DNA of 64,000 nt from a virus: the UHGV virus genome UHGV-0086135. One strand, 5' to 3'. The translations under genes were made by a program, and so were the position numbers. How positions within the stretch are numbered: position 1 is the first letter of the stretch; each line of letters begins with the position of its first letter. The notes beneath the pieces were generated by a model. The model was given only the letters and a program-made list of their open reading frames with translations. It did not search any database and was not told where the DNA came from. Of this stretch, positions 883 through 13,519 are shown piece after piece.

Positions 883-1344
883 ATGACTATCAACACAGAA
901 GTTTTTATCCGTCGAAATAAGCTTCGTCGTCACTTTGAGTCGGAGTTTCGTCAAATTAACAATGAGATTCGTGAGGCATCAAAAGCAGCAGGGGTCTCAT
1001 CGTTTCATCTAAAATATTCTCAGCATCTTCTTGATCGTGCAATTCAACGGGAGATTGATGAGACATATGTTTTTGAATTATTCCACAAAATAAAAGACCA
1101 TGTTTTAGAAGTTAATGAATTCCTGAGTATGCCTCCGCGTCCTGACATTGACGAGGATTTTATTGATGGGGTTGAATACCGTCCTGGACGTTTAGAAATC
1201 ACAGATGGAAATCTTTGGCTTGGATTTACAGTTTGTAAACCTAATGCGAAGTTCAAAGACCCGTCGCTTCAATGCAGGATGGCAATTATCAACAGTCGTC
1301 GTTTACCAGGAAAGGCTTCTAAAGCAGTAATTAAAACTCAATGA
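883..1344 (+). CDS. regB: RegB site-specific endoribonuclease
   Basis: 153 aa; sequence MTINTEVFIRRNKLRRHFESEF... matches my recollection of T4 RegB. Confidence 0.9.
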   Translation: MTINTEVFIRRNKLRRHFESEFRQINNEIREASKAAGVSSFHLKYSQHLLDRAIQREIDETYVFELFHKIKDHVLEVNEFLSMPPRPDIDEDFIDGVEYRPGRLEITDGNLWLGFTVCKPNAKFKDPSLQCRMAIINSRRLPGKASKAVIKTQ

Positions 1345-1351
1345 GGTAAGC

Positions 1352-1897
1352 ATGAGAAAAGCACTACTCGCTGGTCTATTGGCCATTTCAATGATGGCGC
1401 ATAGCTCCGAGCATACTTTCAGTAATGTCCAACTCGATAACATGCGTTACGCGTATCAATTCGGGGAACAATTTTCTAAGGATGGAAAATATAAAACACA
1501 CAAAAATATCCACAAGAGCGGATTAGGTCATATAATGGCTGCTATTTTATGGCAAGAAAGCTCTGCCGGAGTTAATTTAAAATCTAAACCAAAGCATCAT
1601 GCCTATGGAATGTTCCAAAATTATTTGCCTACTATGCGAGCAAGAGTTAAGGAACTTGGTTATAATATGACCGATGCTGAAATAAAAAGAATGTTGAATA
1701 AACGGTCCAATTCAGCTTCCTGGGCGTACATTGAACTTTCTTATTGGTTAAATATACATAAGGGCGATATAAGAAAGGCGATATCCTCTTATAATTCGGG
1801 ATGGAATGTTAAAGCAGGTTCTAAATATGCTTCTGAAGTCCTAGAAAAGGCTAATTACCTTAAAAATAATAAACTTTTGGAAATAGTAAATGACTAA
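1352..1897 (+). CDS. secreted protein with lytic-transglycosylase-like motif (vs.1 position)
   Basis: N-terminal signal peptide; ILWQESSAG...YGMFQN resembles SLT ES...GLMQ motif. Confidence 0.55.
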   Translation: MRKALLAGLLAISMMAHSSEHTFSNVQLDNMRYAYQFGEQFSKDGKYKTHKNIHKSGLGHIMAAILWQESSAGVNLKSKPKHHAYGMFQNYLPTMRARVKELGYNMTDAEIKRMLNKRSNSASWAYIELSYWLNIHKGDIRKAISSYNSGWNVKAGSKYASEVLEKANYLKNNKLLEIVND

Positions 1898-3264: not shown

Positions 3265-3446
3265 GTCTGAGTAAAGAACAAAAAGATAAATTGTTTGAGC
3301 TTATCCATGAACTTCTAGATGAGCATACAGAAGCAAACACCTTTTATGATGAATACGGCCCGCTATCTCCCGATCAGCAAGAAGAATTTGCTGATCGGTT
3401 TGATAAGAAAGAAAACGAATTAATAGCTTATGTGAATACGCTTTAA
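3261..3446 (+). CDS. hypothetical protein, 61 aa
   Basis: ATGA-coupled ORF immediately upstream of tk. Confidence 0.4.
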   Translation: MSLSKEQKDKLFELIHELLDEHTEANTFYDEYGPLSPDQQEEFADRFDKKENELIAYVNTL

Positions 3447-3455
3447 GAAGGTGAT

Positions 3456-4037
3456 ATGGCGAGTTTAATTTTTACTTACGCAGCAATGAATGCTGGAAAA
3501 TCTGCTTCTCTTTTGACTGCTGCACATAATTATAAAGAACGCGGAATGGGTGTATTAGTTCTTAAGCCTGCTATTGATACTCGTGATTCTGTCTGTGAAG
3601 TCGTTTCTCGCATTGGAATTAAGCAGGAAGCGAATATTATTACGGATGATATGGATATTTTTGAGTTCTATAAATGGGCTGAAGCACAAAAAGATATTCA
3701 TTGTGTATTTGTAGATGAAGCTCAGTTTTTAAAAACTGAACAGGTGCATCAATTAAGCCGAATTGTTGATACATATAATGTTCCTGTTATGGCTTATGGT
3801 CTAAGGACTGATTTCGCTGGAAAATTATTTGAAGGTTCTAAAGAACTTTTGGCGATCGCAGATAAACTTATTGAACTAAAAGCAGTTTGTCATTGTGGTA
3901 AAAAAGCGATTATGACAGCTCGATTAATGGAAGATGGAACACCAGTTAAAGAAGGTAATCAAATCTGTATTGGTGATGAAATTTATGTTTCTTTGTGTAG
4001 AAAACATTGGAATGAATTAACTAAAAAGCTCGGTTAG
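3456..4037 (+). CDS. tk: thymidine kinase
   Basis: 193 aa; P-loop NAGKSASLL and C-terminal Zn-finger Cys pattern of TK. Confidence 0.95.
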   Translation: MASLIFTYAAMNAGKSASLLTAAHNYKERGMGVLVLKPAIDTRDSVCEVVSRIGIKQEANIITDDMDIFEFYKWAEAQKDIHCVFVDEAQFLKTEQVHQLSRIVDTYNVPVMAYGLRTDFAGKLFEGSKELLAIADKLIELKAVCHCGKKAIMTARLMEDGTPVKEGNQICIGDEIYVSLCRKHWNELTKKLG

Positions 4038-4046
4038 TGCAAAAGT

Positions 4047-4054
4047 TATAAATA
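4047..4054 (+). promoter_or_regulatory. T4 late-promoter motif TATAAATA
   Basis: Exact TATAAATA ~26 nt upstream of ORF 4080. Confidence 0.4.
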
Positions 4055-4079
4055 GGTTTATCTAACTAAAGGGGTATAT

Positions 4080-4292
4080 ATGCTACAATTAACTGAAAAG
4101 CAACTTCGCAATCTTACTGTTCTTCAATTAGATGAAATTCGTAGGGAAGTTGGAAATATCATTTCAGCTTTGCGTCGAGAAGTATCACTCAACCAATCTC
4201 CGGCAGACTATACTAGATTGCGAAATTTTGAAAAATACCTTGATAAAGTTAAGGCCGTGCATCGGCATAAAGTAAATACAGGACAAAAATGA
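4080..4292 (+). CDS. hypothetical protein, 70 aa (rI.-1 position)
   Basis: ORF with SD between tk and rI. Confidence 0.5.
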
Positions 4293-4304
4293 TAGGAGGC
4301 CTTT

Positions 4305-4598
4305 ATGGCCTTAAAAGCAACGGCACTATTTGCCATGCTAGGATTAGCGTTTGCTTTATCTCCACCAATTGAAGCGAATGTAGATCCTCATTTTGATAAA
4401 TTTATGGAATCTGGTATTAGACACGTTTATATGCTTTTTGAAAATAAAAGCGTAGAATCATCTGAACAGTTCTATAGTTTTATGCGAACGACCTATAAAA
4501 ATGACCCGTGCTCTTCCGATTTTGAATGTATAGAACGAGGCGCGGAGATGGCACAATCATACGCTAGAATTATGAACATTAAATTGGAGACTGAATGA
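4305..4598 (+). CDS. rI: lysis inhibition regulator rI
   Basis: 97 aa with N-terminal signal anchor; matches T4 rI size and sequence as I recall. Confidence 0.85.
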   Translation: MALKATALFAMLGLAFALSPPIEANVDPHFDKFMESGIRHVYMLFENKSVESSEQFYSFMRTTYKNDPCSSDFECIERGAEMAQSYARIMNIKLETE

Positions 4599-4981
4599 AA
4601 TTCAGCGACTTTTCACAAAGTGGAAAACCTTCAAAGGCAGATGAATACTTAGGTTTATTAATGGCTGCACAAGCTTATTTTCATTCTGCACATTTTGAAA
4701 CTAAAAGTTATGCTAGACACAAAGCATACGATTTTATTTTCTCTGAATTGCCAGATTTGATTGATAAATTTGGTGAGCAATATTTAGGGTATTCTGGTAG
4801 AAAATACACGCCTTCTATTCCAGATGCCAGTAAACTTCCTACCGATACAATTAAAATGATTGATCACATACTAGACCAATCTAACAGCATTTATAAAGAA
4901 ATGCCTCCAGCCATTCAAAGCACGATAGATGATATTACTGGGATGTTTTACCAGAGCAAATATCTTCTTTCCCTCGAATAA
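4595..4981 (+). CDS. hypothetical protein, 128 aa (rI.1 position)
   Basis: ATGA-coupled to rI. Confidence 0.5.
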
Positions 4982-4985
4982 CATT

Positions 4986-5008
4986 AGTCTCCTTCGGGAG
5001 ACTTTTTT
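4986..5008 (+). terminator. rho-independent terminator (UUCG-loop hairpin + T-run)
   Basis: agtctcc-ttcg-ggagact followed by ttttt. Confidence 0.7.
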
Positions 5009-5018
5009 CATTTTACCA

Positions 5019-5048
5019 GTTTACTTTCAATTTGAGCCGTGATACTAT
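5019..5048 (+). promoter_or_regulatory. T4-type early promoter
   Basis: GTTTAC 5019-5024, TACTAT 5043-5048. Confidence 0.55.
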
Positions 5049-5076
5049 ACAACCATCGGATAAAGAGGAGAACATC

Positions 5077-5265
5077 ATGAAAATTGAAGCACTCAATCAA
5101 GAAGGAAATATCTACGTCATCATTAATGGTGATTTTTTCGTCGACATGGATGAAGTTACTAGTGAAGAACTTGTAGAACTTCTTAAGAAACGTTATGATA
5201 TGTGTGATGAAGCTGCAACTCATATGGCGTGTGCAATATTCTCTCTTTCATATGTGGTGGAATAA
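5077..5265 (+). CDS. hypothetical protein, 62 aa
   Basis: ATG with AAGAGGAG SD. Confidence 0.5.
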
Positions 5266-5468
5266 TGACTAGAATTGAACAAGCAGATAAAATTAAAGAA
5301 TTGGTAGCTTTAATTCGCAAAGCAGATGAGGAACTTAGTGACTTTGCTTGGTTTTCGGCAGGCATTGCAAATAAAGGTATTGAAAAATTTGAAGCTAAAG
5401 TTGATAATGCTGTAGAAGCTTTAGATATGTTTCTTGATGAAATTATCGATCATAATACGAGAGTTTAA
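5265..5468 (+). CDS. hypothetical protein, 67 aa
   Basis: TAATG-coupled start. Confidence 0.45.
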   Translation: MTRIEQADKIKELVALIRKADEELSDFAWFSAGIANKGIEKFEAKVDNAVEALDMFLDEIIDHNTRV

Positions 5469-5470
5469 GT

Positions 5471-5665
5471 ATGCTAACACGTGAACAGTTTGAAAAAATT
5501 ATTAAATTAGCACGTGATGTTGAAATAGATTCATATCAATTAGCAGTTGAGCATTGTGAAGGATACTCATACGATGGTATAGAAGCAGCTAAAAAGGATT
5601 TGGATAAATCCAAAGCTAAGTTAGTTCAATATCTTGAAATGATTAGGTGGAATAATGAAAACTGA
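5471..5665 (+). CDS. hypothetical protein, 64 aa
   Basis: ORF in small-gene run. Confidence 0.45.
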   Translation: MLTREQFEKIIKLARDVEIDSYQLAVEHCEGYSYDGIEAAKKDLDKSKAKLVQYLEMIRWNNEN

Positions 5666-5828
5666 AAAGCAGATGTTTTTAATGAAGCTAATTGAAGAAT
5701 ATGCTAATGCAGTTTCTGACTATGAGTATTCTGCTCGAGAAAGAGGTACAGCTTTCGCAAAGGAAGAAATGAAAATCATGGTTGATGCTCACACAAAGCT
5801 TCAGAATTTTATTGAAAACGTCATTTAA
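5655..5828 (+). CDS. hypothetical protein, 57 aa
   Basis: ATG overlapping previous ORF end; not in ORF track. Confidence 0.35.
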   Translation: MKTEKQMFLMKLIEEYANAVSDYEYSARERGTAFAKEEMKIMVDAHTKLQNFIENVI

Positions 5829-5830
5829 TG

Positions 5831-5860
5831 GTTTACAAGTTGGCAAGGTTATGATATAGT
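5831..5860 (+). promoter_or_regulatory. T4-type early promoter
   Basis: GTTTAC 5831-5836, TATAGT 5855-5860. Confidence 0.55.
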
Positions 5861-5888
5861 AATCTTGTCAACTGCCAAGGAGAAGAGA

Positions 5889-5993
5889 ATGAAAGTTTTG
5901 TTTGTTGTGTATGTGATGATTCAATATAATTATCCAATGTTTACTTATAATCTGGTGAACAACATTATTGATATTATTCAAAGGAGTATGTAA
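5889..5993 (+). CDS. short hydrophobic ORF, 34 aa (possible leader peptide)
   Basis: AAGGAG SD then ATG 5889; stop 2 nt before next start. Confidence 0.3.
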   Translation: MKVLFVVYVMIQYNYPMFTYNLVNNIIDIIQRSM

Positions 5994-5995
5994 TT

Positions 5996-6553
5996 GTGAG
6001 TGAGTCGAAGAGAATCATTATGAAACGATTAGTATTAGAAGTTAGTCCGCTTTTTGGCGAATTGGCTATAGAAAAAGTAAATAATATGTATCGTTTGACG
6101 CAAGAAGATGATATGCTATATTTTACTCCTAGCGAAATCATTCATTTAACCCAAATTGAATATCCTTATACTGATAAAATAGTAAGCATCAATGATGAGC
6201 ACAAAATTCATTTTTATTCTTCATGCCCAGGATTTAATATTAAAAGTGAGTCAATGTGTTTATCAGTTATCCATTGGGATAGTTTTATAGATAAGATTAA
6301 ATATTTTTATTATTCTAATGAAAGAAAACATAGTTTAAAATGGCTCAAAAATTGCAATGCTATTATTACTAACGCTTGCAATCAAAATGATGAAACTGTT
6401 TTAAATGTATCAAAATGTTATGAAGATGGAGATGTCTTAACTATTCGTCAAATTGATGATTTTCGATCGCATATTGTCACATTTACCAAAGACGAAGCTA
6501 TTGCGCTAAAGACTTATCTTGATTCTGTCATTCCAACTATGATTTCAAAGTGA
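5996..6553 (+). CDS. hypothetical protein, 185 aa (paralogue of next ORF)
   Basis: GTG start with AAGGAG SD; C-terminus resembles that of ORF 6560. Confidence 0.5.
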   Translation: MSESKRIIMKRLVLEVSPLFGELAIEKVNNMYRLTQEDDMLYFTPSEIIHLTQIEYPYTDKIVSINDEHKIHFYSSCPGFNIKSESMCLSVIHWDSFIDKIKYFYYSNERKHSLKWLKNCNAIITNACNQNDETVLNVSKCYEDGDVLTIRQIDDFRSHIVTFTKDEAIALKTYLDSVIPTMISK

Positions 6554-6559
6554 GGAAAT

Positions 6560-7081
6560 ATGTTTATTTCAAGTGAAAGTGGTTTAATTCGCGTTGAATT
6601 TAAAAATGACATCTTCTTTATTCAAGGAGATGATATTATTAAAATGAGTTATGATGAAATTAAGAAAATTTGTAATGCTCTTGAAAGTCATGGAAAAGTG
6701 AACGCTGTTATTGATATTGGTGATTTATGGGTGACACTTTATGAAGTATCCGAAGGATTTAACATTGAAGATGAAAACAACATCTTAGCTATTGATAAAA
6801 GAAGTGATTTGTTTGGTGTATTAAAAGTTTATGAACAGTCAAACGGTGGAAGAAAAGCTGTATTAGTTTATCAAAAACCACATTCATGTGGAACTGCTTC
6901 AATCATTTCAAATATTGAAGATGAAACTGATACTTATATGTGTGTTTTAAAAGCTGGTGGTGACCGTCATCCGGATTTTATTTCTATTCGTCAAAACAAT
7001 GGAGAAATTTCATTATCAAAATCAGAAGCTGAAGCTATGATTAAGTATTTAACAACTGTTACACCTTCAATGAAAGGATGA
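6560..7081 (+). CDS. hypothetical protein, 173 aa (paralogue of previous ORF)
   Basis: C-terminal KSEAEAMIKYLTTVTPSMKG vs TKDEAIALKTYLDSVIPTMISK. Confidence 0.5.
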   Translation: MFISSESGLIRVEFKNDIFFIQGDDIIKMSYDEIKKICNALESHGKVNAVIDIGDLWVTLYEVSEGFNIEDENNILAIDKRSDLFGVLKVYEQSNGGRKAVLVYQKPHSCGTASIISNIEDETDTYMCVLKAGGDRHPDFISIRQNNGEISLSKSEAEAMIKYLTTVTPSMKG

Positions 7082-7563
7082 TTATAATTATGATTATTAA
7101 TGAAAACTCTTGGCACTTTAAAATTTACTCGGCATTTAACAGCACATGGAATCGTCCAAAAACGTTATGTGCTTATTTTTGGAAAACGTTTCTCCCGGTA
7201 TTAGCGGTTTCAATTGTTGGATTTGCAACTTTAACAGGTGCTGCAATAATTGGCCAAGAAATTTTAATTAAATTCTTTGTCTTTAGTAGTCTATGGACAT
7301 TAATTCCAGCTTCAATTGGTATAGGCATTTTAGCATTATCGGTCATGGTTCTTATTGCTGTCGGGGCGGTAATTGGTCCTTCCTGGTTGTTAGACAAATA
7401 TAACGACCGAAAGCTCAATAAAGAAATTGAGCTCATTGTACAAAACGAAGAACGAATCAAAAATGGACTTGAGCCTATTCAACCCAAGAAATCTATTATC
7501 GTCGAATTTTTAAAAGCGCGTAAAGCTAAAGTATGTCCTGTTATTGAATATAAGGCTGAATGA
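7078..7563 (+). CDS. predicted membrane protein, 161 aa
   Basis: Two to three hydrophobic helices. Confidence 0.5.
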   Translation: MIIIMIINENSWHFKIYSAFNSTWNRPKTLCAYFWKTFLPVLAVSIVGFATLTGAAIIGQEILIKFFVFSSLWTLIPASIGIGILALSVMVLIAVGAVIGPSWLLDKYNDRKLNKEIELIVQNEERIKNGLEPIQPKKSIIVEFLKARKAKVCPVIEYKAE

Positions 7564-8573
7564 TGAAAACAGTAATGAAAAGCTATTTTGGTAGTCATCT
7601 TTATGGAACTTCTACTCCAGAATCTGATGTAGATTTTAAAGAAATCTTTGTTCCTCCTGCTCGTGATATTCTTATCGGAAATGTTAAAGAGCATATGAGT
7701 AAAAACACTAACAGCACATCATCTAAAAACACTAAAGATGATATTGACCATGAACTATACAGTCTTAAGTATTTCTTTAAATTAGCAGCAGATGGTGAAA
7801 CTGTAGCATTGGATATGCTCCACACTCCACCTGAACTGGTAGTTAAATCTGATTTGCCTGATGTATGGAAGTTTATTCAAGACAACCGTTCTCGTTTTTA
7901 TACGACTAACATGAAATCCTATTTAGGATATGTTCGCAAGCAAGCTTCTAAATACGGTGTTAAGGGTTCCCGTTTGGCCGCATTACGTGATGTATTGAAA
8001 GTAGTTAATCAAATCCCTGAGCAATGGGTTGATTACCAAGAAGACGGTTCCATTAAGCAGCGTCGAACTAAAGTTGAAGATATTAAGCATCGTCTTCCAG
8101 AGAACGAGTTCTGTGAATGGGTATTCCATAATCATGAGAAAACAGGTCCACAAACGTTCTACACTGTGTTGGGTCGTAAATATCAGACAACGCTTTCTCT
8201 TATCGAGCTTAAGCAATCTTTGAATAAACTTGATGCTGAATACGGCGAACGCGCTCGTAAGGCCGAAGCTAATGAGGGCATTGACTGGAAAGCTCTGAGT
8301 CATGCTTGCCGTGGTGGACTCCAACTATTGGAAATTTACAAAACTGGTGACTTAGTCTATCCACTTCAAGATGCTCCATTTATTCTCGACGTGAAGTTGG
8401 GTAAACATCCATTTAAAACTGTTCAAGAGTTTTTGGAAGATGTGGTCGATCAAGTAGAAGCAGCATCCATTGAAGCTTCTAAGAACGGTATGCAGCAAAA
8501 AGTAGACATGGGTTTCTGGGATGACTTCCTTGAGAGGGTTTATCTTGAAAACCACCGAAGTTATTATAAATGA
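7560..8573 (+). CDS. predicted pol-beta-superfamily nucleotidyltransferase-fold protein, 337 aa
   Basis: N-terminal GSHLYGTSTPESDVDF fits GS-x9-DxD signature. Confidence 0.5.
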   Translation: MMKTVMKSYFGSHLYGTSTPESDVDFKEIFVPPARDILIGNVKEHMSKNTNSTSSKNTKDDIDHELYSLKYFFKLAADGETVALDMLHTPPELVVKSDLPDVWKFIQDNRSRFYTTNMKSYLGYVRKQASKYGVKGSRLAALRDVLKVVNQIPEQWVDYQEDGSIKQRRTKVEDIKHRLPENEFCEWVFHNHEKTGPQTFYTVLGRKYQTTLSLIELKQSLNKLDAEYGERARKAEANEGIDWKALSHACRGGLQLLEIYKTGDLVYPLQDAPFILDVKLGKHPFKTVQEFLEDVVDQVEAASIEASKNGMQQKVDMGFWDDFLERVYLENHRSYYK

Positions 8574-8575
8574 TA

Positions 8576-8599
8576 GGGAGCCTTCGGGCTCCCTTTTTT
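8576..8599 (+). terminator. rho-independent terminator
   Basis: gggagcc-ttcg-ggctccc + tttttt. Confidence 0.75.
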
Positions 8600-8623
8600 A
8601 TTTCAAAATTTTTTCACAAAACG

Positions 8624-8653
8624 GTTTACAAGCATAAAGCTTTATGGTACTAT
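8624..8653 (+). promoter_or_regulatory. T4-type early promoter with conserved leader cassette
   Basis: GTTTAC 8624-8629, TACTAT 8648-8653; downstream leader repeated at 36.3 kb and 63.6 kb. Confidence 0.6.
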
Positions 8654-8687
8654 ACAACTATCAACTGATACGGATTTGGGGAATAAA

Positions 8688-8837
8688 ATGAAAACTACGT
8701 TAATTGAAGTAAAAAAGTTGATTGACACAGAAGAAATTTCAGCTTATTTTGAAAATTTCTTAGAAGATGCAACTGAAGATAACGCAGTTTATCTCGCTCA
8801 GAAAATTATAGAAACATATTTGGAGCAGAATCAATGA
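8688..8837 (+). CDS. hypothetical acidic small protein, 49 aa
   Basis: ATG after repeated leader; not in ORF track. Confidence 0.4.
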   Translation: MKTTLIEVKKLIDTEEISAYFENFLEDATEDNAVYLAQKIIETYLEQNQ

Positions 8838-9097
8838 CAGTTTACGTAGATGTTTTAATGAATCATGGATGGAAACTTCGCGGTCATCCAACTAAAAATT
8901 GTCATATGTTCATTGATGGAGATATTGAAGAGCTTCATAAAATGGCAGAAGCAATAGGAATGAAACGTTCTTGGTTTCAAGATAAACGCATTAAACATTA
9001 TGACTTACATGCTCGCCGACGCCAAAAAGCCGTAGAACTTGGAGCTGTAGAAGTATCTCGTCGCGAAGCAGTAAAAATTTGGCAAACATTAAAATAA
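8834..9097 (+). CDS. small conserved protein, 87 aa (resembles DUF4031 family from memory)
   Basis: MTVYVDVLMNHGWKL...HYDLH pattern; ATGA-coupled. Confidence 0.45.
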   Translation: MTVYVDVLMNHGWKLRGHPTKNCHMFIDGDIEELHKMAEAIGMKRSWFQDKRIKHYDLHARRRQKAVELGAVEVSRREAVKIWQTLK

Positions 9098-9100
9098 ATT

Positions 9101-9130
9101 GTTTACAGTAGGGTAGTAGTGTGATACTAT
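9101..9130 (+). promoter_or_regulatory. T4-type early promoter
   Basis: GTTTAC 9101-9106, TACTAT 9125-9130. Confidence 0.55.
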
Positions 9131-9166
9131 TACCCTATCAAAACAAATGTGAAATTGGAGAATAAA

Positions 9167-10135
9167 ATGAAAACTGTAACTATCAATAAGGGTATCTACT
9201 TCGGTAAAGAAATCTCTGGAACTTTTGAGCTCTTAGGCGAATGGTTCCCAGATAATGCTCCGGTAGATGCACAAGGAGATGGTAAAGTTTTTGTTGAAAT
9301 TGACGGTAAACGTCGCGGTGTTTGGGTTTACAAATCAGATATTTCATATGATGGTGTAAAAGTTGAAGAAGTTAAAGAATCGTATGAAGATATGAAAACC
9401 CGCATTAATAAAAGATTTAATGTTATGGGAATGATGACGAATGGTATTATTAATGGAAATATTCGTTCATTGATTATCTCTGGTGCAGCAGGTATTGGTA
9501 AAACGTATTCTTTAGATAAAGCTTTGAATAAAGCAAATGATATTGGATACATTGAATATAAAAGCATTAATGGTAAAATCTCTGGTATTGGTCTTTATGA
9601 GCAGCTTTGGAATAATCGTGAAGAGAATTCTGTCCTTTTGATTGATGATGTGGATGTTTTCTCTGATATGGATATTCTTAATCTTCTAAAAGCCGCTCTG
9701 GACACTGGAGAGACCCGTAAAGTCTGCTGGAGCACTGCGTCTTCTTACTTAGAAGAAAAAGGCATTGAGCGTGAGTTTGAATTTAAAGGAACGATTGTTT
9801 TTATCACAAACGTTGACATTGACCGCGAATTAGACCGTGGTACTAAACTTGCTCCACATTTACAAGCATTAGTGTCCCGCTCGGTTTATTTGGATTTGGG
9901 TGTTCACACTAATGAAGAAATTATGGTCAGGGTTGAAGATGTTATTCTTTCAACTGACATGATGCAAAAGCGCGGTCTTTCTGATGAAGAAACTTATAAA
10001 GCATTATCATGGATGAAAGTTAATGTTAATCGTTTACGCAATGTTTCACTGCGTACTGCTCTTTATCTTGCTGACTTTATTATGACCGACAAAAACGGTT
10101 GGGAAGAAATCGCTGAGGTTACTCTTCTGAAATAA
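9167..10135 (+). CDS. P-loop (AAA-like) ATPase, 322 aa
   Basis: Walker A GAAGIGKT, Walker B LLIDDVD; ATG with GGAG SD. Confidence 0.55.
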   Translation: MKTVTINKGIYFGKEISGTFELLGEWFPDNAPVDAQGDGKVFVEIDGKRRGVWVYKSDISYDGVKVEEVKESYEDMKTRINKRFNVMGMMTNGIINGNIRSLIISGAAGIGKTYSLDKALNKANDIGYIEYKSINGKISGIGLYEQLWNNREENSVLLIDDVDVFSDMDILNLLKAALDTGETRKVCWSTASSYLEEKGIEREFEFKGTIVFITNVDIDRELDRGTKLAPHLQALVSRSVYLDLGVHTNEEIMVRVEDVILSTDMMQKRGLSDEETYKALSWMKVNVNRLRNVSLRTALYLADFIMTDKNGWEEIAEVTLLK

Positions 10136-10236
10136 TTCATAAGAGGACTTCTATGACAAAAAGGCAGTTCAGAAATAGATTATATGGACTGCCATTAAAA
10201 AGATGACTAGAATTAAACTGGTGAATGGAGGTAGTG

Positions 10237-10539
10237 ATGTTATACTCAAAGGCTCGTGAAATTTACGAAACTAAAATTAAAGAAGCAGTATTTCAGTTCG
10301 CAACGACAATGCGATGGACAAATGACTGGGAGTATTCAAAAAATCATAAGAAGCCCATGGTGACAAGAAAGGCTCATATGTTAGTGTTAATAGACCGTGA
10401 GCAGATTAAAGCCCGAGAAGCCCTCCAGAATCATAAAAAGGCTGCCTTTGAATGGTTTATGGATAACACTGCTCCTGAGACCAAGAAAGCGGTAAGTGCA
10501 TGGTTCAGTGGAAAAAATTGTGAAAGAAGTTTCTTTTAG
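10237..10539 (+). CDS. hypothetical protein, 100 aa
   Basis: ATG 10237 with GGAGG SD. Confidence 0.45.
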   Translation: MLYSKAREIYETKIKEAVFQFATTMRWTNDWEYSKNHKKPMVTRKAHMLVLIDREQIKAREALQNHKKAAFEWFMDNTAPETKKAVSAWFSGKNCERSFF

Positions 10540-10541
10540 TG

Positions 10542-10571
10542 GTTTACAAGACTGTTCCTCTGTGGTACTAT
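10542..10571 (+). promoter_or_regulatory. T4-type early promoter (partial copy of leader cassette)
   Basis: GTTTAC 10542-10547, TACTAT 10566-10571. Confidence 0.55.
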
Positions 10572-10599
10572 ACAACTATCAACTACGGAGGAACACAAA

Positions 10600-11127
10600 A
10601 TGAACGCTAAAGATATTTTCAACTTGGTAAATTACAACGATGGTAAATTTAAATCTGAGGCACAAAGCAAGTTCTTTAATGACATCTCAATCGGAGGTGA
10701 AATCACTGTTGATGGAGGACAAATTTACAAATCCCGTTGGAATTGGATCGTTATTATTGATGAGATCGGTATTGTAGAAATTTACAAAAATACGAATAAA
10801 AATCGTACATTACACTGGTCTCGTGATACTAACGAACAGTACAAAAAGGATAAAGCATCTAAATTATCTCGTGTAACTCAAGAAGATATTGAGTTCATCA
10901 AGAAAGATATTTTAATGTATGATAACTTAATTGCTGAAGAGCAAGCTGTTATTGATAAATTTGACGAGATTAAAGCTTCTCGTGAAATTCCTGATTTTAT
11001 GAAAGAATCAGTAAATGAACGATACACTCTCATTTCAGAGCGTATTGAAACTTACAAAAAGCAAAGAGCTGAACGCCAAAATACTCTTCGGAAGTTTGAA
11101 GAACGGTTAAAGACGGTACTCGCATAA
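10600..11127 (+). CDS. hypothetical protein, 175 aa
   Basis: GGAGG SD; helical charged C-terminus. Confidence 0.5.
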   Translation: MNAKDIFNLVNYNDGKFKSEAQSKFFNDISIGGEITVDGGQIYKSRWNWIVIIDEIGIVEIYKNTNKNRTLHWSRDTNEQYKKDKASKLSRVTQEDIEFIKKDILMYDNLIAEEQAVIDKFDEIKASREIPDFMKESVNERYTLISERIETYKKQRAERQNTLRKFEERLKTVLA

Positions 11128-12496: not shown

Positions 12497-13519
12497 ATGA
12501 AAACTCGTTCTCAAATTGAAGATATGGTTCGTAATGCCAGCTATACTCGTGATGCTATGACGTTTTTGTGTGAAAATAATTTAGACCTTGGTAAAGTTAA
12601 TTGTTCCATTCATGCCTTTAAACATCTGAACAGCAGTGAATGGGTGCGCAATTTTAACCAAGCAGGATATATTACACAAATGACGGCTCGTGAGCAGCTC
12701 ACTGATTTCTGTAAAACTATTGATTATAAAAATCCTCTATTTGTTCAAGGTGTTGGCCAAAGTAAGGTCGATTTATCATCTGGATTTTTCAATCCAAATC
12801 ATTATCGTATTGAATGGAGATTTATTGCTCTATTCCGTAAACAATTAAAACAAATTTTATCAATTGCGAGTCGATTAAAAGGTTCTGATATTAACTTAAA
12901 GAATCTGAAATTTGATGGTTATACTCTTCAGATGGAAGTAAGACCATTAAAAGAAAATAACAGAACTGCGCGAATTAGCTTTAAACCTAATACAAAAAAT
13001 TCTCTTTCAATTTGCGAATGCCTTAAATCACAGTTGACAGAAGCATTTAAGTATATGGATGTTGTTGCCGCTGTTCAGTCTAAGATTTTACCTCATTTTG
13101 AGCGAAATTGGGAACATACAACAACGTATGAACTTGATATGATCGTTTCATTTAAATACGATTTTTTGAGAAAGGACGAAGTCCCACAAGAGAAAAAGCA
13201 GGAAGTGCAAGATAACTTAAATTTATCCAATTACTCATCAAACGATCCTAAATTTTGGATGTATAGTTCAAGTAATAAAGATGCATGGAAATTCAATAAA
13301 GTGAATTTTCTTCCTGTTGAAAATCCGAGTCTTAAACCTGTTGAAAAATGGCATGCGGATGCGATTGAGAAGTCTATCAAGGCAGTAGATGATGAACTCG
13401 TTAAAGCAACTAATGAAGTGTTAGAAGCTGAAAAGATGCTAGAAAAAGCTCAAGAAAAAGTCAAAAATCTTACGAAGCAACGTTCTAAACTGAACAATGC
13501 ACTAAATGCACTAAACTAG
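12497..13519 (+). CDS. coiled-coil paralogue family member B, 340 aa
   Basis: N-terminal MKTR...; central motif shared with member C; coiled-coil tail. Confidence 0.55.
   Translation: MKTRSQIEDMVRNASYTRDAMTFLCENNLDLGKVNCSIHAFKHLNSSEWVRNFNQAGYITQMTAREQLTDFCKTIDYKNPLFVQGVGQSKVDLSSGFFNPNHYRIEWRFIALFRKQLKQILSIASRLKGSDINLKNLKFDGYTLQMEVRPLKENNRTARISFKPNTKNSLSICECLKSQLTEAFKYMDVVAAVQSKILPHFERNWEHTTTYELDMIVSFKYDFLRKDEVPQEKKQEVQDNLNLSNYSSNDPKFWMYSSSNKDAWKFNKVNFLPVENPSLKPVEKWHADAIEKSIKAVDDELVKATNEVLEAEKMLEKAQEKVKNLTKQRSKLNNALNALN

Follow-up and report, generated by a model that had tools for sequence, protein, structure and literature searches.

RlaP-family nucleotidyltransferase NrdC.11, a putative mobile DUF4031 cassette and the AAA+ ATPase NrdC.10 in the variable nrdC–mobD region of a T4-like phage

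We analyzed a stretch of 64,000 nucleotides of the virus genome UHGV-0086135 (hereafter, the window) and found that the genes lying between positions 7560 and 10135 are ordinary, previously catalogued genes of T4-type phages, among which the predicted nucleotidyltransferase (NTase) NrdC.11 most likely mends broken RNA ends. Together, these genes are fairly likely to constitute three units of the variable nrdC–mobD region under separate promoters, namely an RNA-end NTase of the RlaP family, a mobile cassette and an independent AAA+ ATPase, rather than one module. The window is assigned to Tequatrovirus; the region shares 99.3% identity with Escherichia phage UGKSEcP2, and the interval is syntenic with nrdC.11–nrdC.8 of T4. 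The initial annotation of this DNA was right to see a variable accessory region of a T4-like phage here. The four ORFs lie where that annotation had placed them, all on the + strand (table 1). They are real genes and not chance ORFs, and tblastn matched 1565 phage records with the NTase, 1313 with the ATPase and 334 with the DUF4031 protein; none of the four proteins had a usable match in PADLOC or NCBIfam. Just upstream, the stop codon of a predicted membrane protein overlaps the NTase start codon (ATGA), and 25 of the 26 close IMG/VR loci likewise have a homolog of this membrane protein ahead of NrdC.11. Compared with T4, the products of nrdC.11 (NP_049709, annotated "nucleotidyltransferase") and nrdC.10 (NP_049708) are each ~99% identical in amino acids, and the order and orientation of the two genes, as well as the intergenic sequence holding the terminator and promoter, are the same; however, the gap between them is only ~114 bp in T4, whereas an extra cassette of 479 bp, comprising a 49-aa ORF and the DUF4031 gene, is found there in this phage. 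In T4, the fragment from nrdC.11 to mobD.3 can be deleted with viability kept in the laboratory (PMC9825161).

Table 1. Positions of genes and sequence elements in the window (domain and motif limits are in residues of the protein named).
Feature	Position	Strand	Description
Predicted membrane protein	7078..7563	+	161 aa; phrog_944 "membrane protein", E 1e-50
NrdC.11	7560..8573	+	T4 NrdC.11 ortholog, RlaP-family Pol-beta nucleotidyltransferase, 337 aa; 99% identity to T4
NTase signature of NrdC.11	7590..7637	+	GS-x10-DxD, GSHLYGTSTPESDVDF, residues 11-26
Intrinsic terminator	8575..8604	+	Directly after the NTase stop; AGGGAGCC-TTCG-GGCTCCCT, then T run
Promoter-like site 1	8624..8653	+	T4-early type, GTTTACA-N17-TACTAT, TG before -10; ahead of 49-aa ORF
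Left direct repeat	8663..8696	+	34 nt, RBS + ATGAAAACT; cassette border
Acidic ORF	8688..8837	+	49 aa from ATG; phrog_6888, E 1e-27
DUF4031 protein	8834..9097	+	87 aa, pI 9.8; PF13223, E 5.7e-21
Promoter-like site 2	9101..9130	+	Early type, GTTTACA-N17-TACTAT; ahead of ATPase
Right direct repeat	9142..9175	+	34 nt; cassette border
NrdC.10	9167..10135	+	T4 NrdC.10 ortholog, phage-specific AAA+ ATPase, 322 aa
Domains of NrdC.10			N-terminal beta domain 1-61; AAA+ core ~73-245, beta-hairpin before sensor 1; helical lid 249-320
Walker A of NrdC.10	9482..9505	+	GAAGIGKT, residues 106-113
Walker B of NrdC.10	9635..9655	+	LLIDDVD, residues 157-163

The NTase ORF matches the Pfam family RlaP (PF10127) with 43 bits against a gathering cutoff of 23 (E 5.9e-11), as well as phrog_388 (E 1e-136), and RlaP is matched above the gathering score by all 39 aligned diverse homologs (22–85% identity; best E 9.8e-23). 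The family, which was to be sought among CD-NTases, MNT, OAS or polymerases according to the initial annotation, is thus RlaP for all 39, the CD-NTase, OAS and MNT models being unmatched. The N-terminal motif had nevertheless been rightly read as a signature of the Pol-beta superfamily, as it fits the pattern hG[GS]x9-13Dh[DE]h that Aravind and Koonin reportedly described in 1999. Residues G11, S12, S22, D23, D25, D63, K244, R251 and G281 are invariant in the 39 homologs; at position 85, 38 of them have D or E and the remaining one, L059, has Q. NrdC.11 hence carries the predicted catalytic signature of Pol-beta enzymes, consisting of hG[GS], Dx[DE] and a further conserved acidic residue. As for the ~280 aa that follow, formerly described as unassigned, they probably correspond to the RlaP helical domain and to an insertion of ~95 residues: short homologs (240–255 aa) span positions 19–248 of the 249 of the RlaP model, both of their ends can be aligned with NrdC.11, and it is relative to them that NrdC.11 shows the insertion (roughly 137–235). 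A KNTKDD loop is strongly conserved in NrdC.11. Since the insertion is not found in the characterized RlaP enzymes and the Pfam match spans only residues 7–135, the specificity of NrdC.11 may differ from theirs. An AlphaFold2 model built on a 14-sequence alignment (78–99% identity) reached a pLDDT of 51, with residues 1–117 below 50, and the fold is here presumed from family membership. Sequence and profile searches of PDB sequences returned nothing meaningful (only a spurious troponin T), and no relative of NrdC.11 was detected among 185,579 cellular genomes with the patterns used in the scan.

A preprint of December 2025 reports that a Pseudomonas RlaP adds one or two NMPs to the 3′-OH of RNA but not to DNA or protein, that Mn2+ is preferred, and that the crystal structure of PfRlaP comprises an NTase domain and a C-terminal helical domain, with three conserved Asp (bioRxiv 10.64898/2025.12.29.696909). 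Its authors placed T4 NrdC.11 itself within the RlaP family, in cluster 5 of their SSN; they also found that, in total E. coli RNA, full-length species of tRNA and rRNA size were labelled by the Pseudomonas enzyme with little NTP specificity, that in vitro RlaP favoured the 3′ end of a mimic of cleaved tRNA rather than the acceptor end, and that E. coli proteins and DNA were not labelled by RlaP enzymes (bioRxiv 10.64898/2025.12.29.696909). A comparative study had predicted that RlaP restores lost nucleotides to RNA ends before ligation (PMC7824862). Like the Pseudomonas enzyme, NrdC.11 possesses GS/DxD and a further invariant Asp, with Pfam membership above the cutoff, and is predicted from its sequence to have an N-terminal NTase domain and a C-terminal helical domain; in related phages, its homologs are linked to RNA ligases. 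By contrast with the RlaP enzymes studied so far (cluster 1a), it belongs to another sequence cluster, harbors the ~95-residue insertion and the KNTKDD loop, and lies outside any RtcB/RtcA operon, with an activity that is predicted. The catalytic GS...DxD core of NrdC.11 is also common to CCA-adding enzymes, MenT/AbiEii toxins and CD-NTases, the first two of which likewise act on RNA 3′ ends, but none of the corresponding models is significantly matched by NrdC.11.

The genomic neighborhoods of distant homologs point in the same direction. We gathered 47 loci in which the NrdC.11 homolog is at most 50% identical, forming 36 clusters at 80% identity, and compared them with 34 control loci centred on NrdC.10, which were drawn from different phage types. 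A T4-type RNA ligase 1 (PF09511), an HD + P-loop kinase or a CCA-adding enzyme is encoded within 10 kb in 10 of the 36 clusters versus none of the 34 controls (Fisher p 1e-3), and adding a tk.4-like macro ORF raises the count to 14/36 versus 0/34 (Fisher p 3e-5), with the other 22 clusters showing no recognizable repair gene within 10 kb. The 10/36 versus 0/34 contrast supports a function in tRNA/RNA end repair rather than in nucleotide signalling. In six distant phage loci, the RlaP homolog has a separate gene for a CCA-adding enzyme as its neighbor, hence the two activities are distinct. Genes for RNA ligase, polynucleotide kinase and CCA-adding enzyme are all absent from the 64-kb window itself. 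The repair genes of T4 sit elsewhere in the T4 genome, and given their absence from the window, any partners of NrdC.11 would be encoded elsewhere in this genome as well.

What NrdC.11 does, on which substrate and to what end during infection, we infer from its family membership and its gene-neighborhood link, both of which are observed. By homology, the metal site formed by GS/DxD/D would add one or two untemplated nucleotides onto the 3′-OH of damaged RNA, the likeliest substrates being tRNA fragments trimmed by host anticodon nucleases or other RNases. From there, the kinase-phosphatase and RNA ligase of the phage could seal the extended RNA, or a CCA-adding enzyme could complete it.

The ATPase gene of the interval, nrdC.10, indeed encodes a P-loop AAA+ protein of 322 aa, with its Walker A motif at residue 106 and its Walker B motif at residue 157, as had been proposed. 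Its ATG at 9167 is preceded by a GGAG ribosome-binding site, whereas the GTG at 9149, from which the program-made ORF list starts the gene (328 aa), is not. In 27 homologs, G106, A107, G109, G111, K112 and T113 of Walker A are invariant, position 108 being A or P, and so are D160, D161 and D163 of Walker B. With Walker A and B, sensor 1, arginine finger/sensor 2 and an alpha-beta-alpha core followed by a helical lid, NrdC.10 is an AAA+ protein. Walker A and B are shared with AAA+ proteins bearing a pre-sensor-1 hairpin (MoxR-type NorQ/CbbQ, sigma-54 activators, MCM) and with the initiators and clamp loaders DnaA/Hda, ORC and RFC, as are the sensor-1 Asn, the SR motif, the Arg-rich helix of sensor 2 and the core plus lid. 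No sequence relative of NrdC.10 was found in the PDB, and the scan of 185,579 cellular genomes yielded three matches, one on a 167-kb contig, as long as the genome of a T4-type phage, and two weak and partial. The N-terminal domain is swapped in distant homologs, with for instance an HTH-like segment in L094, which suggests other targets, and no conserved neighbor of NrdC.10 emerged from 34 distant loci. NrdC.10 is a phage-restricted AAA+ protein with a variable N-terminal domain and would most likely act as an ATP-driven remodeller or loader independently of the NTase.

Between the two genes, the 479-bp cassette has the sequence hallmarks of a PeSL-type mobile regulatory cassette, its borders as an indel between close relatives being marked by a stem-loop terminator and an early promoter. 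The terminator (8575-8594) is strong, with a stem of 8 pairs, 6 of them G-C, and its sequence is identical in T4; the promoter-like site ahead of the 49-aa ORF is included in a 44-nt repeat, of which a second copy lies at 10541-10584. The two copies of the 34-nt direct repeat (family D2) are 79% identical and spaced by 479 nt, and in the alignment with T4, it is at the left copy that T4 runs straight into nrdC.10, the 479-bp segment being absent. PeSL (promoter-early/stem-loop) motifs are known to mediate indels in the hyperplastic regions of T4-type phages (PMC4122927). Here, as in PeSL cassettes, a terminator stem-loop and an early promoter flank an indel of small ORFs and promoter/RBS sequence is repeated at both junctions, but the junction repeat differs in extending through the RBS and the first three codons. 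This direct-repeat-bounded insertion with its own early promoter was, from these features, most likely gained by PeSL-type recombination.

Regarding its content, the 49-aa ORF is acidic, as initially noted (pI 4.1; 11 D+E vs 4 K+R), and is translationally coupled to the DUF4031 gene by an ATGA overlap, a pairing that is conserved at two different genomic positions. The 87-aa ORF, which had rightly been noted as DUF4031-like, scores 75 bits against PF13223 (gathering cutoff 25.6). It is not found in T4 by genome comparison. Residues D6, H24, L34, A38, G42, W47, Q49, H55, Y56, D57 and G70 are invariant in 22 homologs. Among the matches listed, all DUF4031 homologs are stand-alone proteins of 49–128 aa, with no fusions; no sequence relative was found in the PDB, and the literature on DUF4031 yielded one incidental mention. 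DUF4031 occurs within ~2 kb of NrdC.10 in T4-like phages and in one jumbo-phage contig; neither NrdC.10, NrdC.11 nor a recurrent partner surrounds it in a 198-kb metagenomic contig or in a Mycobacterium contig. A partnership of DUF4031 with NrdC.10 was considered and rejected as unproven, only 1 of the 34 distant NrdC.10 loci carrying DUF4031 nearby.

Several other functions can be envisaged for the NTase. The initial annotation had surmised that the NTase plus the ATPase could mean synthesis, degradation or mimicry of a nucleotide signal. The two would then act together on a second messenger, in the way of a CD-NTase or OAS enzyme or of an anti-CBASS function. Both genes do lie in an early-gene accessory region where T4 keeps many host-interference functions, and GS...DxD is common to every Pol-beta-fold NTase, including CD-NTases (bioRxiv 10.64898/2025.12.29.696909). 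Yet all 39 homologs match RlaP and none of them a Pfam model of the CD-NTase/OAS/SMODS/Mab-21 type, the PADLOC defence-NTase models give no match at E up to 0.1, and characterized RlaP enzymes extend RNA 3′ ends, free oligonucleotide products not being reported (bioRxiv 10.64898/2025.12.29.696909). As NrdC.11 and NrdC.10 moreover form no conserved pair, with a terminator and promoters between them, we regard such signalling as extremely improbable. It is almost as hard to believe that the substrate nucleotidylated by NrdC.11 is, in place of RNA, a protein or a small molecule, in the manner of antibiotic NTases or of the antitoxin MntA. Its N-terminal motif resembles that of minimal NTases and its ~95-residue insertion could form a different substrate pocket, but the NTP_transf_2 and MntA matches are weak (13.8 bits vs a cutoff of 21 and 13.2 vs 60, respectively), E. 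coli proteins and DNA were left unlabelled by RlaP enzymes, and the neighborhoods of NrdC.11 homologs point to RNA. An offensive role on RNA is unlikely too, though less starkly so: like MenT/AbiEii, NrdC.11 would add extra nucleotides to the 3′ ends of host tRNA/rRNA, resulting in translation shutdown or marking for RNA decay. The early-gene context of nrdC.11 and the labelling of full-length tRNA- and rRNA-sized E. coli RNA by the Pseudomonas enzyme, with little NTP specificity, would fit this scenario; against it stand the linkage of homologs to the repair partners RNA ligase, HD-kinase and CCA-adding enzymes, the finding that RlaP in vitro favours the 3′ end of a mimic of cleaved tRNA rather than the acceptor end, and the lack of matches to MenT/AbiEii-type models, MntA (E 0.059) falling far below the cutoff.

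It may also be asked whether NrdC.10 became a working partner of NrdC.11 in the T-even lineage, for example as a remodeller presenting broken tRNA or ribosome-bound RNA to it. Of the 26 close IMG/VR loci, 19 have the two genes side by side and co-oriented, as do T4 and Shigella phage SF2-1; reciprocally, NrdC.11 is directly upstream in 9/9 close NrdC.10 loci, and the pairing holds from Acinetobacter to Escherichia phages, with NrdC.10 identity down to 66%. This adjacency nonetheless follows phylogeny and overall synteny: in seven close loci NrdC.11 has no NrdC.10 nearby, the partner is absent from 47/47 distant NrdC.11 loci and 34/34 distant NrdC.10 loci, and in one contig the two genes are ~40 kb apart. 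The co-occurrence expected by the initial annotation therefore largely fails, the genes being adjacent only in close T-even relatives and unlinked or single elsewhere. Host-genus counts differ as well (286 NrdC.11 vs 149 NrdC.10 in Klebsiella phages, 59 vs 121 in Vibrio phages), and in this window nrdC.10 is separated from nrdC.11 by a terminator and two early promoter-like sites, each gene having its own promoter. The absence of linkage in distant loci, the differing counts and the intervening terminator and promoters argue that NrdC.10 is independent of NrdC.11, and with the swapping of the NrdC.10 N-terminal domain in distant homologs (the HTH-like segment of L094) also speaking against it, we deem such a partnership improbable.

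For genome scanning, the value of this interval is mainly negative: no new nucleotide-signalling system is present, and the adjacency of an NTase gene and an ATPase gene, where phage genomes are syntenic, is no evidence of a module. DUF4031 and the AAA+ family of NrdC.10 (over 1300 phage records) are widespread phage proteins. RNA repair as a counter-defence was discovered in T4, where Pnkp and Rnl1 oppose PrrC. A bolder proposal, which we advance tentatively and hold to be rather doubtful, would make NrdC.11 the missing third activity of this classic T4 tRNA-repair pathway and, separately, the repeat-bounded orf49–DUF4031 a new mobile counter-defence gene pair. NrdC.11 would then restore the nucleotide(s) excised by "smart" host nucleases such as RloC, allowing Pnkp and Rnl1 to rebuild a functional tRNA. 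In the gene pair, the invariant D, H and H-Y-D residues of DUF4031 suggest a small metal-dependent hydrolase, with an acidic protein as its partner. If NrdC.11 does heal trimmed RNA ends, this would explain how T-even phages cope with nucleases that not only cut but also take nucleotides away.

The window is part of a Tequatrovirus, and the genes of the interval considered here are catalogued T4 genes of catalogued families. Escherichia phage UGKSEcP2 is 99.3% identical to window positions 7000-10600, for which megablast matched 739 phage records; by tblastn, 1565 phage records matched NrdC.11, 1313 NrdC.10, and 334 the DUF4031 protein. Compared with the annotated T4 genome, the 337-aa and 322-aa ORFs are orthologs of nrdC.11 (labeled "nucleotidyltransferase" in RefSeq) and nrdC.10, each at ~99% identity, and the latter is followed in the window by nrdC.9 and then nrdC.8. 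The recognition of RegB, SLT-domain, thymidine kinase, and rI antiholin genes establishes the standard T4 gene order, the plus strand of the window corresponding to the T4 minus strand. No tRNA genes were found across the 64-kb window. The GTG at 9149, taken as the ATPase start in a mechanical ORF list, has no GGAG site in front. In GenBank, many phage records label NrdC.11, NrdC.10, NrdC.9, and neighbors "thioredoxin," apparently after the nrdC.x locus names, and one record names NrdC.11 "HNH homing endonuclease"; both labels are annotation errors.

Features of the region, in window coordinates
Feature	Position (nt)	Strand	Remarks
RegB endoribonuclease	883-1344		
SLT-domain (vs.1-type) protein	1352-1897		
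Macro-domain ORF, 159 aa	2228-2707	+	PF01661, E 1.3e-7; ~5 kb 5' of NTase
Thymidine kinase	3456-4037		
rI antiholin	4305-4598		
Tandem paralogs, T4 y05I-like putative transcription factor	5996-6553, 6560-7081	+	PF24449 + PF24448, E 1e-33 to 1e-39; immediately 5' of membrane-protein ORF
Membrane-protein ORF, 161 aa	7078-7563	+	Stop overlaps start of 337-aa ORF
NTase ORF, 337 aa	7560-8573	+	T4 nrdC.11 ortholog
Strong terminator	8575-8594		Then T run; 3' of NTase stop
T4 early-type promoter-like sites	8624, 9101, 10542		GTTTACA-N17-TACTAT; before 49-aa ORF, ATPase, nrdC.8
44-nt early-promoter block, two copies	8623-8666, 10541-10584		82% identity; before 49-aa ORF and nrdC.8
34-nt direct repeat	8663-8696, 9142-9175		Borders 479-bp segment
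Acidic ORF, 49 aa	8688-8837	+	pI 4.1
DUF4031 ORF, 87 aa	8834-9097	+	Start overlaps stop of 49-aa ORF; PF13223, E 5.7e-21
ATPase ORF, 322 aa	9167-10135	+	T4 nrdC.10 ortholog; ATG preceded by GGAG site

The initial annotation had read the sequence features correctly: the nucleotidyltransferase motif GSHLYGTSTPESDVDF (residues 11-26 of NrdC.11) and the ATPase motifs GAAGIGKT (residue 106) and LLIDDVD (residue 157) are present, and the 87-aa ORF does belong to DUF4031. Its functional proposal, namely synthesis, degradation, or mimicry of a nucleotide signal, is not supported; the evidence favors the healing of RNA 3' ends. NrdC.11 matches the Pfam family RlaP (PF10127, "RNA repair pathway DNA polymerase beta family") with 43 bits for a cutoff of 23, as well as phrog_388; PADLOC and NCBIfam gave no usable match. 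Of 39 aligned homologs (22-85% identity), drawn from 73 IMG/VR loci, every one matches the RlaP model, with no match to any CD-NTase, OAS, or MNT model. Residues G11, S12, S22, D23, D25, D63, K244, R251, and G281 are invariant in this alignment, the KNTKDD loop (56-61), D242, and H248 nearly so, and 38 of the 39 have D or E at position 85. As homologs of only 240-255 aa extend over the full RlaP model (positions 19-248 of 249) and align with both ends of NrdC.11, the ~280 aa once regarded as unassigned probably correspond to the RlaP helical domain with a ~95-residue insertion. The characterized Pseudomonas RlaP enzymes, which add 1-2 nt to RNA 3'-OH ends, prefer Mn2+ and act preferentially on the broken end when given a mimic of cleaved tRNA, and the crystal structure comprises an NTase domain and a helical domain, with three conserved Asp; the same December 2025 preprint assigns T4 NrdC.11 to cluster 5 of the family, without an assigned function (bioRxiv 10.64898/2025.12.29.696909). 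An earlier comparative study had already predicted that RlaP puts back nucleotides lost from RNA ends ahead of ligation, and observed that in jumbo phages it tracks with RNA ligases (PMC7824862). For NrdC.11, healing of RNA 3' ends within tRNA/RNA repair is the best-supported mechanism, one that we regard as reasonably probable; a role in nucleotide signaling is improbable.

The signaling proposal also relied on the ATPase as a partner, and the distribution of the two genes in related phages, a criterion named in that annotation itself, counts against it. Of the 26 IMG/VR loci where NrdC.11 identity is 62% or higher, 19 carry NrdC.10 no more than 10 kb downstream, as do T4 and Shigella phage SF2-1; none of the 47 loci with ≤50% identity does (a few of these contigs are short). 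Reciprocally, an RlaP gene stands directly 5' of NrdC.10 in 9/9 loci at ≥66% identity and in 0/34 at ≤58%. One contig carries both genes ~40 kb apart (L027 and L086), and host-genus counts for NrdC.11 versus NrdC.10 diverge (286 vs. 149 for Klebsiella phages, 59 vs. 121 for Vibrio phages). Together with the terminator and promoter-like sites between the genes, these counts indicate that the adjacency reflects lineage synteny rather than a conserved module. We regard both the ATPase and the DUF4031 cassette as independent neighbors.

We conclude that NrdC.10 is a putative phage-specific AAA+ remodeller or loader. In its confident AlphaFold model (pLDDT 88), residues 1-61 form an N-terminal beta domain, the AAA+ core has an additional beta-hairpin ahead of the sensor-1 strand, and a helical lid is also present. 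The elements invariant across 27 homologs are Walker A and Walker B, the sensor-1 motif FITN, an SR motif, and a sensor-2 helix rich in Arg; the Pfam AAA models all stay below their cutoffs. Structure matches in the viral set are phage proteins without names; relatives in cellular genomes are essentially absent. The N-terminal domain is replaced in distant homologs, and no neighbor is conserved among the 34 distant loci, DUF4031 occurring near NrdC.10 in one only. This locus, on a 296-kb jumbo-phage contig (L094), encodes a 37% identical homolog (9569-10762) with an HTH-like N-terminal segment, and a divergent DUF4031 gene (12731-13048) 2 kb 3' of it.

Since the T4 nrdC.11-nrdC.10 gap is only ~114 bp, the 49-aa ORF and DUF4031 gene form an insertion relative to T4, whose intergenic sequence matches window 8560-8696 exactly before continuing directly into nrdC.10. 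The 34-nt repeat bordering the 479-bp segment spans the ribosome-binding site and ATGAAAACT, a pattern shared with the promoter/stem-loop (PeSL)-mediated shuffling described for T4-type hyperplastic regions (PMC2839356, PMC4122927). GTTTAC-N17-19-TAYWAT occurs 15 times on the plus strand of the window, and such early-promoter repeats could be substrates for PeSL-type recombination. The pair occupies one of two sites: the nrdC.11-nrdC.10 gap or, in relatives of Klebsiella and Citrobacter phages, a place 2-3 kb 3' of nrdC.10; the 4-nt overlap is kept at both positions, with acidic-ORF identity between settings down to 41-45%. In SF2-1 (5735-5821), the acidic ORF appears disrupted: it matches in part only and is separated from DUF4031 by 82 nt. 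As DUF4031 is intact there, the pairing is not a strict one. DUF4031 proteins stand alone and share the invariant residues D6, H24, W47, Q49, and H55-Y56-D57; the other contexts inspected were uninformative, and a literature search returned nothing beyond one incidental mention.

An RNA-end-repair role for the phage RlaP clade is supported by the gene neighborhood of the 47 distant NrdC.11 loci (36 clusters at 80% identity). In nine loci (four clusters), the RlaP gene has as neighbors a T4-type RNA ligase 1 (PF09511, E 2.6e-26) together with a kinase of the HD + P-loop type (PF01966 + PF13671); in six further loci, a CCA-adding enzyme (PF01743 + PF12627 + PF01966) is 0.8-5 kb away; and in four more (L029, L030, L060, L065), a tk.4-like macro-domain ORF is found within ~3 kb. 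Ligase, kinase, or CCA enzyme occurs within 10 kb in 10/36 clusters (14/36 including the macro ORF), and none of these genes was found in 34 control loci centered on NrdC.10 (Fisher p ~1e-3 and ~3e-5, respectively). In one uncultured-phage group (L032, L034-L037, L040, L041; e.g., L036 ~3300-8355), a same-strand array of, in order, zeta-toxin-like kinase, HD + P-loop kinase, 103-aa ORF, T4-type RNA ligase 1, and, as its last gene, RlaP looks like a compact RNA-repair operon. The 159-aa Macro-domain ORF of the window is apparently of the T4 tk.4 type; 25 of the 26 close loci have a homolog 3.6-6.9 kb 5' of NrdC.11, a possible second link to RNA repair or to ADP-ribose processing. No RNA ligase, kinase, or CCA enzyme is encoded inside the 64-kb window; the T4 repair enzymes are encoded elsewhere in the T4 genome. 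RlaP has been proposed to counteract nucleases which, like RloC, excise a nucleotide after cleavage (bioRxiv 10.64898/2025.12.29.696909), and the laboratory dispensability of the T4 fragment from nrdC.11 to mobD.3 (PMC9825161) is as expected of a conditional counter-defense gene.
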